Source: an uncultured Clostridia bacterium (GTDB lineage Bacteria; Bacillota; Clostridia; Christensenellales; UBA1242). From it: DNA of 64,000 bases. The notes beneath the pieces are model-generated. The model had not been told where the DNA came from and searched no databases. It worked only from the letters and a program-made list of their open reading frames with translations. Both the position numbers and the translations under genes were made by a program. This document shows, piece by piece, positions 13,589-52,058 of the stretch; position 1 is the stretch's first letter; each line of letters begins with the position of its first letter. Where the stretch lies: positions 5,424 through 69,423 of the forward strand of contig CAKVHE010000001.1 of the NCBI GenBank assembly GCA_934747885.1, given 5' to 3'.

Positions 13589-15169
13589 TTATAATGAAAT
13601 TGTTAACGCTGGGCGAATGCCTCTACCGACATCGTACACATATCGGTCGTTTATATTTCCGTTAGGATTAACATGGGACGCAGCGTTATCCATACCGCCA
13701 GCTGAACGAAGCCAATAGTAACCACATAAAGTAGCTGCATTGATGTATGCGTTATTAACAATCGCAAAATCAGTTGGAACCGATTGGCGTCCTTTTTTGT
13801 TTAAATATAAATTTGTGCCGTAATAGGTATTACTTGCCTCGTAGTAACTTGCCAGCCACACATTATCCTCACAGGTAGATCCACCTGTAGTTACAGTATA
13901 GTCATCTTTGGTAGCATGCTCGCCTGTTCCAAAATATCTTGTAATGTTTTTAGTAATGTAGCCTTTATCACTGGCACTGAAAGCACTCGTGTAAAATGAA
14001 TTGTTGAGCCAGTCGCGGATGTTGCTCGCGCTCCATACATTACTACTTTTATCAAACATTACATTGGCAGTTAATATATTTTCACTAATTACCCTTAGGT
14101 TGGTGGTTGAACCAGTATAATCAGTTTTAGTTGCTGAATATGCCTCCAATAAGAACCATTTTATTGGTTCTACCTTAAACCAATAAGTATTGTAATTTGT
14201 AGCTGAAGTGCCAGTAGAAAATTTGTATTGTGCACTATTATCATCATTCACTACCGCACTCGCAACTTTAACATATTTTGCGCCATTGTAAGTATATTCC
14301 ACATGCGCAGTTTGAGCAGCGTCTTCGCTTGCACCTACAGTAAAGGTTCTACCGGTTTTGGCGCTATCACCTAATGCATTTAAGGCAGATACGGTTGTAG
14401 TGTCTGCTACCACTGTTTGTGGGTATTCACCCAGTTCTACATAATAAAAGTAGTTTCCATTTATTGGTTCTTCGGTTACTTTAATTTTAGATTCGGTAGT
14501 TGTATTTGTCGAGATACTAAAGTTTAATGTAAATTTCCAATCGGCGCTATCAATATTTACCGATTGAGTTAGATTAACGCGTGCTTCTGCTTTTATAAAC
14601 ACGCCTTCCCCACCATCCACCGTTACGCTGCCGCCATCCGTTAGAGAAGTTGTGCTATCAAAACTTGGAAGAGTGGAAACGGTAGATTTTGTGTAAGAAT
14701 AACTAACAATTATGTTTTTGTCCGTCACCGCTGGCGCTGTTAAGGTTACATTATTAGATGTCGAACCCTCTGGCAATACATAGTAAAAGTAATAAGTTAT
14801 TGCAACATAAGTTCTACCACCATTTACTATTTCTTTTATTTTATCGTTACTTACAAAGTTTATTTTTTCTTGTATGCTATCTAGGTTGGTTTGATTCACC
14901 CCAGAAGCACCGTTATACACGTTAAGCCAGCTAGTAGCGTTTGTGCTTTCACTCAAAACCTTGCTGGTGGTTCTGTCCGTGCCTGCAACATCACCCACGC
15001 GAGTGGCAAATAGTTGCCCTTCTACTGCATTAAATTCCAAATTAAGTTGGTTGGCAATTACAACTTGAAAATTGGTTAAACTTGCCATTACGCCAACTGC
15101 AATTAAAGATAAAGCACATACCATAGAAATTATGGTAGCAATTAACTTTGTTTTAGCGCTTTTGTTCAT
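13589..15169 (-). CDS. membrane-anchored or secreted surface protein, T/S/N-rich, with C-terminal WLRS...GIRPAL domain (DUF6273-like)
   Basis: N-terminal signal anchor (LIATIISMVCALSLIAVGVMA). C-terminus YWLRSAG...VNPNGNI...GRGIRPALTISL resembles the W-LRS/GVRPA domain of gut Firmicutes surface proteins (recalled, not searched). Confidence 0.6.
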   Translation of the reverse strand: MNKSAKTKLIATIISMVCALSLIAVGVMASLTNFQVVIANQLNLEFNAVEGQLFATRVGDVAGTDRTTSKVLSESTNATSWLNVYNGASGVNQTNLDSIQEKINFVSNDKIKEIVNGGRTYVAITYYFYYVLPEGSTSNNVTLTAPAVTDKNIIVSYSYTKSTVSTLPSFDSTTSLTDGGSVTVDGGEGVFIKAEARVNLTQSVNIDSADWKFTLNFSISTNTTTESKIKVTEEPINGNYFYYVELGEYPQTVVADTTTVSALNALGDSAKTGRTFTVGASEDAAQTAHVEYTYNGAKYVKVASAVVNDDNSAQYKFSTGTSATNYNTYWFKVEPIKWFLLEAYSATKTDYTGSTTNLRVISENILTANVMFDKSSNVWSASNIRDWLNNSFYTSAFSASDKGYITKNITRYFGTGEHATKDDYTVTTGGSTCEDNVWLASYYEASNTYYGTNLYLNKKGRQSVPTDFAIVNNAYINAATLCGYYWLRSAGGMDNAASHVNPNGNINDRYVYDVGRGIRPALTISL

Positions 15170-19623: not shown

Positions 19624-20955
19624 TTAAAATCTAAGACCTTTTTGACCAAACATTTTTGCAAGCTTGCCGTTGTTGGCGTTTTTCATAAGTTGTTTGGTTT
19701 GCTCATATTGCTTTAATAGTGCGTTTACTTCTTGAATGCTGGTTGCACTACCTTTTGCAATACGCTGACGATTGCTTGATTTTATAAGGTCGGGATTGTC
19801 ACGCTCTTTTTGCGTCATTGATTGAATGATTGCTTTGTAGCGGACAAGTTTGTGTTCATCTATGGTTTGGTTACCAATATAGCCAGATAGCCCCGGAACC
19901 ATTCGGGCAAGTTCGTTAATGTTGCCCATTTTGGAAATTTGTTCAAACTGAACCAAAAAGTCGCTTAAGGTGAAAGAATTTTTGCGGAGTTTTGCCTCCA
20001 TCTCTTTCATTTCCTTTTCGCCTACCGACTGCTCTACCTTTTCAATTAAGGTAAGCACATCACCCATACCCAATATACGCGAAGCCATTCGGTCTGGGTG
20101 GAACGGTTCGAGGTCGCCCACTTTTTCGCCTGTTGCACAAAATTTGATTGGTTTGCCGGTGACTGCTTTTATGGAAAGCGCTGCACCGCCACGAGTATCA
20201 CCATCTAGTTTGGTAAGTACTACGCCGGAAATATCCAATTTTTCGTTGAAGGCTTTGGCAACTTCCGCCGATTGCTGACCCGTCATTGCGTCGACGGTTA
20301 ATAAAATTTCGGTTGGTTGAATGCGAGATTTTATTTCGGCAAGCTCATTCATAAGTGTTTCATCAATTTGAAGTCTGCCCGCGGTATCCACAATAACAGT
20401 GTCTAACCCGCGTTTTTTTGCTTCCGCAATTGCTTTTTCGGCAATATCGGCCGGATTTATGGTGCCGTGTTCGTAAAAATCTACGCCCGCACTGCCTGCA
20501 ACAACTTTTAGTTGGTTTATGGCTGCCGGACGATAAATATCACACGCAACCAGCATTACCTTTTTGCCCTGAGATTTTAGGTAGTAACCAAGTTTGCCAC
20601 AAAGCGAGGTTTTGCCCGCGCCTTGCAAACCACACATCATAATTATGGTTGGTGGGTTTGGCGCAACGGTTAGTTTGGCGGTTTGTCCGCCCATAAGTTC
20701 AGTAAGTTCATCCCTAACAATTTTGATAACTTGTTGTGTTGGGGTTAAACTTTCCAGCACTTTTTGACCGATTGCCTTTTCGGTTACCGATTTTACAAAA
20801 TCTTTGGCAACACCATAACTAACGTCTGCTTCTAAAAGCACTACCCTAATTTCACGCATTGCATTGCTGATTTCAAGTTCGGTTAGTTTGCCACGCTTGG
20901 TTAGCTTTGAAAAAATATGATTTAGTTTTTCGCTTAGTGATGAAAAAACTGCCAT
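19624..20955 (-). CDS. ffh: signal recognition particle protein Ffh
   Basis: N and G domains (GLQGAGKTS, DTAGR, TKLDGD.RGG) and a Met-rich M domain. Confidence 0.97.
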   Translation of the reverse strand: MAVFSSLSEKLNHIFSKLTKRGKLTELEISNAMREIRVVLLEADVSYGVAKDFVKSVTEKAIGQKVLESLTPTQQVIKIVRDELTELMGGQTAKLTVAPNPPTIIMMCGLQGAGKTSLCGKLGYYLKSQGKKVMLVACDIYRPAAINQLKVVAGSAGVDFYEHGTINPADIAEKAIAEAKKRGLDTVIVDTAGRLQIDETLMNELAEIKSRIQPTEILLTVDAMTGQQSAEVAKAFNEKLDISGVVLTKLDGDTRGGAALSIKAVTGKPIKFCATGEKVGDLEPFHPDRMASRILGMGDVLTLIEKVEQSVGEKEMKEMEAKLRKNSFTLSDFLVQFEQISKMGNINELARMVPGLSGYIGNQTIDEHKLVRYKAIIQSMTQKERDNPDLIKSSNRQRIAKGSATSIQEVNALLKQYEQTKQLMKNANNGKLAKMFGQKGLRF

Positions 20956-35863: not shown

Positions 35864-35892
35864 TTGACAATTATTAAAAAAAATGGTATTAT
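35864..35892 (+). promoter_or_regulatory. tRNA-Leu(UAG) promoter
   Basis: TTGACA-17 nt-TATTAT, about 30 nt upstream of the tRNA 5' end. Confidence 0.7.
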
Positions 35893-35922: not shown

Positions 35923-36007
35923 GCGGGCATGGCGGAACTGGCAGACGCGCTAGACTTAGGATCTAGTATCGAGAGATGTGGGAGTTCAAATCTCTTTGCC
36001 CGCACCA
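35923..36007 (+). tRNA. tRNA-Leu (anticodon UAG), CCA encoded
   Basis: Acceptor GCGGGCA/TGCCCGC, anticodon stem CTAGA/TCTAG with loop CTTAGGA, long variable arm, T-loop GTTCAAATC, 3' ACCA. Confidence 0.93.
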
Positions 36008-36142
36008 AACAAAAAGAACCAAACAGACAAATTTGGTTCTTTTTGTTTGTACTCTTCTTTTTTATTTATTCGTTCTTCTTTTTTCTTTTACTTTTTGGTT
36101 CTTTTTGAAATAAAAAATAAAAAAGAAAAAATAAAAGTGAAT
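36004..36142 (+). repeat. tRNA-Leu trailer block, copy A (homolog of 51446-51584 on the opposite strand)
   Basis: Aligned by eye at roughly 75-80% identity with indels over ~135 nt. Contains a second copy of the terminator 3' arm (TTTTTGGTTCTTTTT, 36092-36106). Confidence 0.8.
36011..36048 (+). terminator. intrinsic terminator after tRNA-Leu(UAG)
   Basis: AAAAAGAACCAAA-cagacaaa-TTTGGTTCTTTTT, then GTTTG. Confidence 0.8.
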
Positions 36143-36146
36143 GGTG

Positions 36147-36164
36147 CCGACCGCGCGCGGTCGG
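36147..36164. repeat. perfect 18-nt GC-rich palindrome
   Basis: CCGACCGCG|CGCGGTCGG embedded in an AT-rich spacer. Function unknown. Confidence 0.6.
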
Positions 36165-36299: not shown

Positions 36300-36424
36300 T
36301 CACCGCAAAAACGGAACTTGCTTCCGTTTTTCGTTTGGCGGTGAGCGGCGCGGAAACTGGACGATAAACGACGCTTTAATGTGACCACATTAAAGCAAGC
36401 CAAAAGTCCAAGTTGAAGCGCACA
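36300..36424. ncRNA. structured tandem unit 1 (unclassified candidate RNA element)
   Basis: Clamp TCACCGC/GCGGTGA enclosing AAAAACGGAA-cttgc-TTCCGTTTTT, then a long irregular hairpin ending in GCTTTAATGT-gacc-ACATTAAAGC. Confidence 0.55.
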
Positions 36425-36426
36425 AT

Positions 36427-36555
36427 TCGCGACAAAACAGCACCCCGAATGGAGTGCTGTTTTCGTTTGGTCGCGAGAAGCGCGGAGACTGGACGATAAG
36501 CGACGCTTTGATGCAATTGCATCAAAGCAAGCCACAAGGTCAAGTCGTAGCGCAC
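36427..36555. ncRNA. structured tandem unit 2 (unclassified candidate RNA element)
   Basis: Same architecture with compensated stems: TCGCGAC/GTCGCGA, AAAACAGCAC/GTGCTGTTTT, GCTTTGATGC-aatt-GCATCAAAGC. Loops match unit 1. Confidence 0.55.
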
Positions 36556-51445: not shown

Positions 51446-51584
51446 TTTACTCTTATTTTCTCTTTCTTATTTTTTATTTTAAAAATAGCCAAACTTAAAA
51501 TTTAAAGAAGAAAGAAAAACGAAGAACGAAGAAATAAAAGTACAAAAAAACCAAACCTTACGGTTTGGCTATTTTTGTTTGGTG
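51446..51584 (-). repeat. tRNA-Leu trailer block, copy B (homolog of 36004-36142)
   Basis: Minus-sense sequence after tRNA-Leu(UAA) aligns with copy A. The distal arm GTTTGGCTATTTTT (plus strand 51481-51494) is the exact complement of the terminator 5' arm. Confidence 0.8.
51544..51576 (-). terminator. intrinsic terminator after tRNA-Leu(UAA)
   Basis: Minus sense AAAAAUAGCCAAAC-cguaag-GUUUGGUUUUUUU. Confidence 0.75.
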
Positions 51585-51665
51585 CCGATGGCCGGACTTG
51601 AACCGGCACGAAGTTTCCCCCGAGGGATTTTAAGTCCCTTGCGTCTGCCATTCCGCCACATCGGC
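51580..51665 (-). tRNA. tRNA-Leu (anticodon UAA), CCA encoded
   Basis: Minus sense GCCGATG...AGGGA-CTTAAAA-TCCCT...long variable arm...GGTTCAAGTCC...CATCGGCACCA. Confidence 0.92.
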
Positions 51666-51669
51666 ATTT

Positions 51670-51743
51670 TGGAGGCACCACCCAGAATCGAACTGGGGAT
51701 GAAGGTTTTGCAGACCTCTGCCTTACCGCTTGGCTATGGTGCC
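51670..51743 (-). tRNA. tRNA-Cys (anticodon GCA), CCA encoded
   Basis: Minus sense GGCACCATAGCCAAGCGGTAAGGC...CTGCAAA...GTTCGATTC...GGTGCCTCCA. Confidence 0.92.
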
Positions 51744-51952: not shown

Positions 51953-52027
51953 GCGGGAGTGGCTCAGTGGTAGAGCGTTGCCTTGCCAAGGCAAATGTCG
52001 CGAGTTCGAATCTCGTCTTCCGCTCCA
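51953..52027 (+). tRNA. tRNA-Gly (anticodon GCC), CCA encoded
   Basis: GCGGGAGTGGCTCAGTGGTAGAGC...TTGCC-TTGCCAA-GGCAA...GTTCGAATC...CTTCCGCTCCA. Confidence 0.93.
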
Positions 52028-52029
52028 TA

Positions 52030-52058
52030 ATGGCTACCAATTGCGGTAGTCATTTTTT
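52030..52058 (+). terminator. intrinsic terminator after tRNA-Gly
   Basis: ATGGCTACC-aattgc-GGTAGTCAT followed by TTTTT. Confidence 0.7.

Follow-up and report, generated by a model that had tools for sequence, protein, structure and literature searches.

The window examined here, a stretch of 64,000 nucleotides (64 kb) of contig CAKVHE010000001.1 from an uncultured Clostridia bacterium, raises the question of why two different tRNA-Leu genes are followed by much the same non-coding sequence. This sequence, called the block below, occurs as block A behind tRNA-Leu(UAG) and as block B behind tRNA-Leu(UAA). An earlier note on the same DNA had read it as a trailer RNA under selection for its fold, and had argued from this against a mobile element of the MITE type (a transposable element of miniature size with inverted repeats). 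The wider comparison gave a different picture, in which the block looks like a mobile or recombining cassette of ~140-190 bp that is scattered patchily over a few uncultured gut Clostridia and supplies a terminator. More specifically, we give an even chance to a non-autonomous mobile cassette linked to the CCA ends of tRNAs; it would be the tRNA-proximal arm in some family of site-specific integrative elements, or else a miniature unit derived from one.

The trailers A and B are homologous and could be aligned over ~140 nt, beginning at the first base past the encoded CCA. The identity was 81.4% of aligned positions for the block, compared with 72.5% for the bodies of tRNA-Leu(UAG) and tRNA-Leu(UAA). 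The homology of roughly 75-80% judged by eye in the earlier note, and its remark that the block is better conserved than the tRNAs, were in agreement with these values. Both cores quoted there, TTTTATTTNTTCGTTCTTCNTTTTTCTTT (36060-36088 and 51539-51511) and AAATAAAAAATAARAAAGARAAAATAARAGT (36108-36138 and 51479-51449), occurred exactly twice in the 64 kb with three mismatches allowed, against a chance expectation of 0. The end of the block had been set at 36142; the shared stretch was found as described, but the homology runs on through ATGGTG and a GC hairpin (36142-36164), and a second long hairpin, H2, had been overlooked. Four tRNAs were detected in the window by ARAGORN and Rfam, and the association with two tRNA-Leu genes is a small sample of the window, not a property of the element.

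Nine copies (A-I), seven of them (C-I) newly found, were recovered in all from the window species and three other genomes, and they represent only three or four lineages (Table 1). Copies C-F came from scans of genome contigs and metagenomes together with nhmmer, and G, H and I from extended sequence of the window species; the large collections were scanned by exact pattern, so that divergent copies escape. A match in another contig (L073) was discarded as low-complexity DNA. At least four copies (A, B, G and the partial I) and the strain-specific H belong to the window species, and two (C and D) to Christensenella sp. UBA7862. Eight of the nine begin at the base after an ACCA end, six of them behind full tRNAs and two behind 3' fragments of tRNA-Lys, in one orientation throughout; the sole exception is the partial copy I. 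The tRNA gene is intact at the junction in A-F, which start at the base past the CCA. The earlier note had proposed an nhmmer search for whether the block always follows tRNA-Leu. It does not, as tRNA-Leu, tRNA-Arg and tRNA-Lys fragments were all found ahead of it, in addition to the partial copy I.

It might be supposed that the trailers are ordinary tRNA terminators followed by low-complexity AT-rich spacer, alike through composition or local gene conversion. The region is indeed of low complexity, and RNAalifold on a MAFFT alignment returned only short invariant helices. However, the 29- and 31-nt cores stand at two sites only, with a chance expectation of 0, and the distal complement of the first arm, described below, lies at the same offset in independent lineages. 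In addition, the copies in other genomes gave nhmmer E-values of 1e-18 to 1e-45, and other T-rich regions gave no such matches. This explanation is already refuted by the matches in other genomes and keeps next to no probability.

The occupation of orthologous sites was followed with homologues of the 347-aa protein encoded between C and D as the ruler. The relative with 80% protein identity (L209/L210) carries an identical tRNA-Leu(AAG) with an ordinary terminator and different downstream DNA, and the homology between UBA7862 and L209 at this gene ends at the CCA. The tRNA-Leu(AAG) of L213 and L215 (50% and 51% protein identity) is likewise followed by an ordinary terminator and no block, and the tRNA-Arg(UCG) of L214 (52%) has none. 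In L208 (86%) a block-like start is present, and the contig ends 24 nt into it. Copy F, behind the tRNA-Arg(UCG) of L209, has lost TTCGTTCTTC and suffered deletions in both cores, even though the protein encoded next to it has 80% identity, so that constraint over the long term is not general. The synteny of YebC homologues offered no orthologous trailers, because relatives at ~70% identity have no tRNA beside yebC, and homologues of the 200-aa protein upstream of block A were found in the same species only. In further samples of the window species the block was unchanged.

The block thus stands where the orthologous tRNAs of relatives have an ordinary terminator, and, judged from these comparisons, it is gained or lost at orthologous tRNA sites. 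Copies are closer within a genome (A/B/G/H; C/D) than across genomes. Across genomes the block (81.5%) is about as similar as the orthologous tRNA-Leu(UAG) genes (82.9%), a match that seems odd for vertically inherited intergenic DNA. The multiple copies, the occupied and empty orthologous sites and the tRNA-level similarity between genomes together argue for movement and not for long-term vertical conservation. Conservation by descent as a tRNA-Leu trailer, as the earlier note would have it, found no support, since the block also follows tRNA-Arg(UCG) (D and F) and tRNA-Lys fragments (G and H) and is missing at orthologous tRNAs.

Two further observations concern these tRNA sites. Past the tRNA-Arg(UCG) of L214, an array of ~40-nt degenerate direct repeats (tgatttgtaagacaa...) lies ahead of a Sua5 gene (2197-2566). 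A Logan contig of the window species (L206, 3693-4138) holds a tRNA-Leu(UAG) with the promoter and 5' half known from the window; from the anticodon stem on, the 3' half is another one, as is the terminator, again of the ordinary kind, and the DNA is richer in GC. Two origins are conceivable: a chimera formed in assembly at a k-mer that tRNAs share, or a strain in which an element has integrated within the tRNA.

The tRNA-Lys site of the window species was seen in contigs of two strains (L216 and L217). Copy G lies between 70-nt direct repeats, R, that end in CCCGATGACCCACCA; the second R follows 62 nt after the block, just ahead of a terminator, and one R is broken by a 100-N scaffold gap. 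Strain L217 has, ahead of this terminator, a 17-nt duplicate of the 3' end of its own tRNA-Lys. This att-like arrangement matches the pattern of accretion and of cis-mobilizable elements (CIMEs), and the accretion of decayed elements at tRNA-Lys, tRNA-Leu and tRNA-Arg 3' ends is well described in Firmicutes (PMC5704250). The tRNA-Lys(CUU) site is an integration or accretion hot spot. The tRNA-Lys(CUU) itself differs between the strains (L216 17830-18452 vs L217 20660-20952), with acceptor stems GGGTTAT/ATGACCC vs GCTTCCT/AGGGAGC. L216 retains a degenerate 3' fragment of the other tRNA-Lys(CUU) allele downstream, and both strains carry partial duplicates of the tRNA 3' end before the shared terminator.

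Copy H is present in one of the two strains, next to a DUF6273 gene cassette that is not at that place in L216. Copy I lies ~165 nt past the CCA end of tRNA-Lys(UUU) and ~125 nt past its terminator. Both H and I border the DUF6273 cassette, at different loci in the two strains, and mark strain-level rearrangement junctions. The earlier note had held that many non-tRNA sites with invariant ends would speak for a mobile element; H does occupy a non-tRNA site, but the ends of the copies are not invariant. The DUF6273-domain genes (L216 20500-20810, L217 14960-15280; window 13589-15169, minus strand) are preceded by a conserved leader with a run of 10-11 G (L216 ~20591-20601, L217 ~15067-15076), and may form a phase-variable surface-protein cassette.

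Neighbours of the mobile type were found at other copies as well. Copy D is followed by a convergent XRE repressor and copy E by an orphan Spo0A_C protein, both with PHROG hits and of the type carried by mobile genetic elements. The latter is a stand-alone 129-aa Spo0A C-terminal-domain protein (L079 1402-1791), convergent to block E, and may be mobile-element cargo. Furthermore, a relative with ~70% YebC identity (L006, 7760-9472) has a tyrosine integrase 300 nt past tRNA-Ile(GAU), and the stretch between the two holds a terminator together with arm-like sites, TTTGACATCAAAT, that are repeated in either orientation. This locus is a textbook attL (left attachment site) in the same clade and the ordinary version of the arrangement seen in the block.

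Table 1. Positions of blocks A and B with their tRNA genes in the window, and of the further copies C-I on other contigs.
Feature	Position	Strand	Remarks
Promoter of tRNA-Leu(UAG), sigma-70 type, strong	35864-35892	+	TTGACA-17-TGnTATTAT; 11/12 matches plus TG extension
tRNA-Leu(UAG)	35923-36007	+	encoded CCA 36005-36007; block A from next base
Block A	36008-36164	+	
Block A, 5' arm a	36011-36023	+	AAAAAGAACCAAA; H1
Block A, H1 loop	36024-36031	+	
Block A, proximal 3' arm a'	36032-36044	+	TTTGGTTCTTTTT; H1 = 36011-36044
Block A, H1 as predicted terminator	36006-36049		18 pairs, 5 G-C
Block A, linker and T-rich core	36045-36093	+	5' strand of H2; GTAC at 36049-36052
Block A, distal arm a''	36094-36106	+	TTTGGTTCTTTTT; direct repeat of a', complement of a, apical part of H2
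Block A, A-rich core	36108-36138	+	AAATAAAAAATAAAAAAGAAAAAATAAAAGT; 3' strand of H2
Block A, right-end module	36142-36164	+	TGGTG, then GC hairpin H3 CCGACCGCGCGCGGTCGG (36147-36164)
Promoter of tRNA-Cys/tRNA-Leu(UAA) operon	51798-51770	-	
tRNA-Cys(GCA)/tRNA-Leu(UAA) operon	51580-51743	-	tRNA-Cys 51670-51743, tRNA-Leu(UAA) 51580-51665
CCA of tRNA-Leu(UAA)	51582-51580	-	block B from next base
Block B	51579-51440	-	
Block B, 5' arm a	51576-51563	-	AAAAATAGCCAAAC; H1
Block B, H1 loop	51562-51557	-	
Block B, proximal arm a'	51556-51544	-	GTTTGGTTTTTTT; imperfect, one G-U pair and one U-U mismatch vs a; H1 = 51544-51576
Block B, H1 as predicted terminator	51570-51549	-	
Block B, H1 as predicted terminator	51551-51568	+	
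Block B, GTAC and T-rich core	51495-51543	-	GTAC 51543-51540; 5' strand of H2
Block B, distal arm a''	51481-51494	-	GTTTGGCTATTTTT; perfect 14-nt complement of a
Block B, A-rich core	51449-51479	-	3' strand of H2
tRNA-Gly(GCC), negative control	51953-52027	+	TCCA end; ordinary terminator 52029-52054; no block
Copy C	L008/L041, Christensenella sp. UBA7862		after tRNA-Leu(AAG); exact-pattern scan of GTDB species representatives
Copy D	same UBA7862 contig, 2.3 kb from C	inverted relative to C	after tRNA-Arg(UCG); nhmmer
Copy E	L079, third organism		after tRNA-Leu(UAG), 82.9% identical with that of the window; block 81.5%; metagenome scan
Copy F	L209, relative of UBA7862		after tRNA-Arg(UCG); decayed
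Copy G	L216 18094-17964, window species	-	after CCCGATGACCCACCA, last 15 nt of the strain's tRNA-Lys(CUU); no full tRNA
Copy H	L217 17422-17293, second strain	-	after GATGACCCACCA only (12-nt tRNA-Lys 3'-end fragment); non-tRNA site
Copy I, partial	L216 20166-20263	+	starts at GTAC; H1 missing, a'' and H3 kept

The anatomy of the block is given in Table 1. The first hairpin, H1, has the form of a predicted intrinsic terminator that is bidirectional, with an A-tract before and a T-tract after it, and the same shape was seen in C-H. The GTAC behind it is kept in eight of the nine copies and reads GAAC in the decaying copy F. The T-rich core includes TTCGTTCTTC, which is identical across copies A-E. 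The T-rich and A-rich cores form an imperfect inverted repeat and hence H2; the minimum-free-energy fold of every copy, on either strand, consisted of H1 and an AU-rich H2 of 25-30 bp with a'' in the apical part. As the earlier note had described, the 5' arm has two possible partners, and a and a'' span 96 nt in A as well as in B; this span is 87-100 nt in the remaining copies. That the distal arm of B is the better match was also correct. The arms a, a' and a'' point right, left and left, and the order a, T-core, a'', A-core means that two inverted-repeat pairs are interleaved. The T-core/A-core repeat is shorter than the whole unit and leaves H1 outside, though H1 is part of the repeated unit.

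Several other identities were tried on this anatomy and rejected. Coding was dismissed, as the copies have no shared open reading frame (ORF), indels of 7 nt and 5-6 nt shift the frame, and no Shine-Dalgarno sequence is present; a leader peptide or small ORF fared no better, the ORFs starting at TTG-TAC having 16-41 codons and different ends. The readings as a target-site duplication, as a host terminator plus guide loop or as two nested MITEs were dropped. H1 is near-identical at different tRNAs of one genome and therefore belongs to the unit, and the two inverted-repeat pairs are interleaved. Integron attC sites, dif/Xer sites and IS200/IS605 ends were rejected because their consensus features were not seen on inspection, and a REP/REPIN-RAYT system, which has a GC-rich palindrome with a GTAG head in very many copies plus a RAYT gene, because the palindrome here is AU-rich, occurs twice per 64 kb and has no Y1 transposase found with it. 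An inverton in which a and a'' flip the 70-bp terminator segment was also set aside: four contigs of the same species showed the segment in no inverted form, and its length is very small; the idea is kept only within the structure-guided or switch possibility considered below.

The three arms vary between lineages in a concerted manner. In copy A, a is AAAAAGAACCAAA, and the reverse complements of a' and a'' are the same. In B, G and H, a is AAAAATAGCCAAAC, with AAAAAAACCAAAC as the reverse complement of a' and AAAAATAGCCAAA(C) as that of a''. Copy E has AAAAATAATCC for both a and the reverse complement of a', and AAAAATAATCT for that of a''. The corresponding sequences of copy C are CAAAATAAATCCGGCC, CAAAAAATCCGCCC and CAAAATGAATCCGCC, and D is as C with single changes. 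The T that breaks the A-run stands at a position that differs by arm type; its A partner is always present in a'', and in a' only in E. The distal complement always lies 44-50 nt past a', also in independent lineages. In mononucleotide shuffles of the downstream region, the observed complement was equalled 5 (A), 0 (B), 7 (C) and 6 (G) times per 20000, and 255 (E) and 943 (D) times; F was not significant.

Pairs were counted on arm segments anchored by hand on the CC:GG pair (alignment A4; three or four lineages), because the registers of the MAFFT alignment hide H1: its compensated indel falls in different registers, and RNAalifold under-reports the helix. For a:a'', 89.8% of the cells were paired, both sides were changed in 7 of the 14 pairs and the covariation score was 0.469, a value reached in 0 of 500 shuffles, with slid registers giving at most 0.12. 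For a:a', the corresponding values were 80.6%, 6 of 14 and 0.306. Accordingly, a'' tracks a better than a' does. The covariation spans four arm types and at least three genomes, and B, G and F contain G-U pairs when the tRNA strand is read. In contrast, H2 showed conservation without compensatory change in RNAalifold. The earlier note was correct on the covariation of the distal arm and had even understated it; its conclusion that the block is not mobile does not follow, because recombinase sites could co-evolve and mobile elements also use folded single strands. To judge from the alignments, chance accounts for the pattern less well than would selection on the base pairs of a single-stranded molecule, or a set of three protein-binding sites that evolve together. 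The arms may co-vary either because a has to pair with both a' and a'' in the single-stranded form, or because all three are sites for one lineage-specific recombinase.

A functional trailer RNA, as seen in the earlier note, is a rival reading. It would be co-transcribed with the tRNA and serve as a processing signal, a regulatory RNA like the 3' external transcribed spacers (3'ETS) or a switch, with recombination carrying it from one tRNA locus to another. As a switch, a paired with a' would set the terminator on, and a paired with a'' would allow read-through into the downstream DNA. The fixed orientation directly after the CCA, behind strong tRNA promoters, agrees with it, as do the three-way covariation with a:a'' kept better than a:a', the G-U pairs on the tRNA strand in B, G and F, and the near-constant span from a to a'' (87-100 nt) despite indels. 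A precedent is one such spacer, that of glyW-cysT-leuZ in E. coli, which pairs with RyhB (PMC6191717), and copy B has the same Cys-Leu(UAA) order. However, the conserved cores lie beyond a hairpin and U-tract that should stop most transcripts, and with a' blocked the predicted fold retains H2 and a:a'' pairing is absent. H2 lacks compensatory change and no Rfam family matches. Moreover, the block is absent at the orthologous tRNAs of close relatives and decays in F, and none of G, H and I stands behind a functional tRNA. The downstream context is unrelated between copies: A, D and E face convergent genes, and the gene past B has a consensus promoter of its own. A trailer RNA was therefore considered unlikely.

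The right end of the block brought in another possibility. On the opposite strand, the H3 end reads as a hairpin, 1-2 nt and ACCA, like the end of a tRNA minihelix (window 36142-36164; L216 20239-20263; L041 3026-3055; L209 2554-2580); in copy A it is hairpin-C-ACCA on the reverse complement, and the 9-mer TCGGCACCA (36142-36150, minus strand) is identical with the 3' end of tRNA-Leu(UAA). Five copies (A, C, D, F and I) keep the ATGGT, and the sequence of the H3 stem varies by lineage. The unit could thus stand between two facing ACCA-ended stems, which keeps alive the reading as a self-contained miniature transposon, whose fold would be recognised by its own enzyme, with single-stranded DNA or RNA as the intermediate. 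The transposon would home to stem structures that end in ACCA. Its boundaries would be the tRNA acceptor end on the left and the hairpin-ACCA mimic of H3, on the other strand, on the right.

Such a transposon would agree with the constant structure under arm and H3 stem sequences that vary by lineage, with a junction exactly at the CCA of tRNAs that have otherwise no long common core, and with the interleaved order of a, T-core, a'' and A-core, which is impossible by nested insertion of ordinary MITEs. A 5-nt inverted CACCA...TGGTG bounds A and C, and ACCA...TGGT is found in D, F and I, but the 5-nt repeat is possibly due to chance. ATGGT is missing in B and E, and G and H have only a TAAGGT variant ahead of the palindrome. 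The copy number is low, inspection of the nine copies showed no consistent target-site duplication, and no HUH/Y1 transposase, reverse transcriptase or insertion sequence (IS) gene was seen in the window and ~10 kb on each side. Furthermore, the 12 nt from a foreign tRNA end that accompany H, and the 70-nt direct repeats on both sides of G, are better explained by recombination at att-like cores. The miniature transposon is accordingly rated as quite improbable.

The mobile cassette tied to tRNA CCA ends remains the preferred reading. Under it, the cassette would insert at tRNA 3' ends, as the tRNA-proximal arm of an integrative element or as a CIME-like miniature derivative moved in trans. 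The family, its positions, polymorphism and decay, the att-like repeats and the fold were observed, whereas a recombinase, the direction of movement and the roles of H2 and a'' are inferred. By means of H1, transcription from the strong tRNA promoter would again be terminated, and the tRNA would be shielded from antisense transcription.

Several results weigh against this cassette. No integrase, transposase or reverse transcriptase, and no cognate tyrosine or serine recombinase, HUH/Y1 transposase or IS gene, was found in the 64-kb window or ~10 kb on each side. Blocks A and B have no direct repeat of at least 10 nt of their own tRNA 3' ends within the window, and the genes downstream of both are housekeeping or polysaccharide genes. 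The tRNAs have only (G/C)CACCA in common, which is short for an att core, and conservation is higher in the T- and A-cores than in the arms, atypical of att arms. The scaffold gap in one R copy means that the array is not fully resolved, and nine copies from three or four lineages are a small sample. Two arm types (A vs B/G/H) coexist in one genome, each internally consistent, so that selection for base pairing is an easier account than a single recombinase. Finally, a parent element was not found in phage or plasmid records or IMG/VR, for which the cores, the R repeat and the block as a whole served as queries.

Five exact-pattern scans of viral contigs gave no true match, the 14 and 120 IMG/VR pattern hits being chance by nhmmer, and the exact-pattern scans of GTDB species representatives and JGI metagenomes returned non-autonomous copies only. 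With Rfam, at gathering and relaxed thresholds, only tRNAs passed in the window, at both loci and in the tRNA-Lys array; the best other score was that of Phe_leader (22 bits vs a threshold of 55).

Among known systems, the block is close to an attL arm or CIME (PMC5704250). Like these, it abuts tRNA 3' ends in fixed orientation and replaces the native trailer, is present or absent among relatives, has a copy (G) between direct repeats of a tRNA 3' end, and combines its own terminator with repeated short sites in both orientations beside the core, as at the tRNA-Ile/integrase locus of L006. Unlike them, no copy seen has a linked integrase, the window holds no attR-like duplicate for A or B, the sequence common to the host tRNAs is ~5-6 nt only, the unit measures ~150-300 bp, and the AT-rich cores are more conserved than the putative binding sites.

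Correia/NEMIS, ERIC, RUP, BOX and REP/REPIN are bacterial MITE-type or palindromic repeats that act as terminators or RNA hairpins. The block resembles them as a small, non-coding, multi-copy, intergenic imperfect palindrome (H2) that is patchy, bears a terminator and can fold in transcripts; it differs in being tied to tRNA CCA ends, in its interleaved and not terminal inverted repeats, in its low copy number and in the lack of a target-site duplication and of any cognate IS or RAYT found. Folded sites are known as well: the attP(+) hairpin of the CTX phage consists of two inverted sites ~90 nt apart, and integron attC is a folded single-strand site. The block shares with these the weight of structure over sequence and inverted partners ~90-100 nt apart, but it has no R''/R' (RYYYAAC/GTTRRRY) boxes, dif-like sites, IntI or phage context, and its primary-sequence cores are strongly conserved.

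The 3'ETS-leuZ of E. coli (PMC6191717) is likewise a tRNA-Leu(UAA) trailer after a Cys-Leu pair, with a function of its own. It is a short, vertically inherited stretch through the terminator, whereas the conserved part of the block lies beyond the terminator hairpin, and the block is not Leu-specific, not kept at orthologous tRNAs and has no known partner RNA. A trailer of this type was rejected on the T- and A-cores and a'' conserved 3' of H1 and its U-tract, and on the absence at orthologous tRNAs. Overall, the block resembles an att arm or CIME and the terminator-bearing MITEs (Correia, ERIC, RUP), with some, not all, of the marks of either, and it is placed among the small non-autonomous repeats of tRNA integration hot spots. 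The unusual feature is the three-way arm covariation within interleaved inverted repeats.

This feature leaves room for an undescribed mechanism, although we regard it as rather doubtful. A structure-guided element might home to tRNA ACCA ends, its three arms, interleaved repeats and hairpin-ACCA mimic being read by a trans-acting enzyme through single-stranded DNA or RNA; or a switch of a, a' and a'' might set the read-through from strong tRNA promoters into cargo such as polysaccharide or DUF6273 surface-protein genes.

The surroundings of block A hold a second repeat. Between A and the 3' end of yebC lie tandem 96-nt elements (36328-36423 and 36460-36555, 80% identical) with a covarying hairpin (GCTTTAATGTGACCACATTAAAGC vs GCTTTGATGCAATTGCATCAAAGC) and no Rfam match. 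A third copy (89% identical) lies directly past pnp in L217 (14715-14803) and is not at that site in L216. The element is probably another small mobile structured repeat or a small RNA. The interval from A to B is occupied by housekeeping genes (yebC, rlmB-like, rplT, rpmI, infC, thrS, argS and others) and a sugar-nucleotide cluster.

If the block is indeed a mobile cassette, then in uncultured gut Clostridia the terminator and 3' flank of a tRNA gene can be replaced by a small cassette that moves inside a genome and from one genome to another, and such cassettes mark places where strains are prone to rearrangement. For annotation, conserved-looking trailers need not be regulatory RNAs; the assembly of these genomes and the search for integration sites are affected as well. 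In the three-way covariation there is a clean signal, open to test, that a single-stranded fold or a recombinase reads the element, and identification of that reader could reveal a new tRNA-end-targeting activity.

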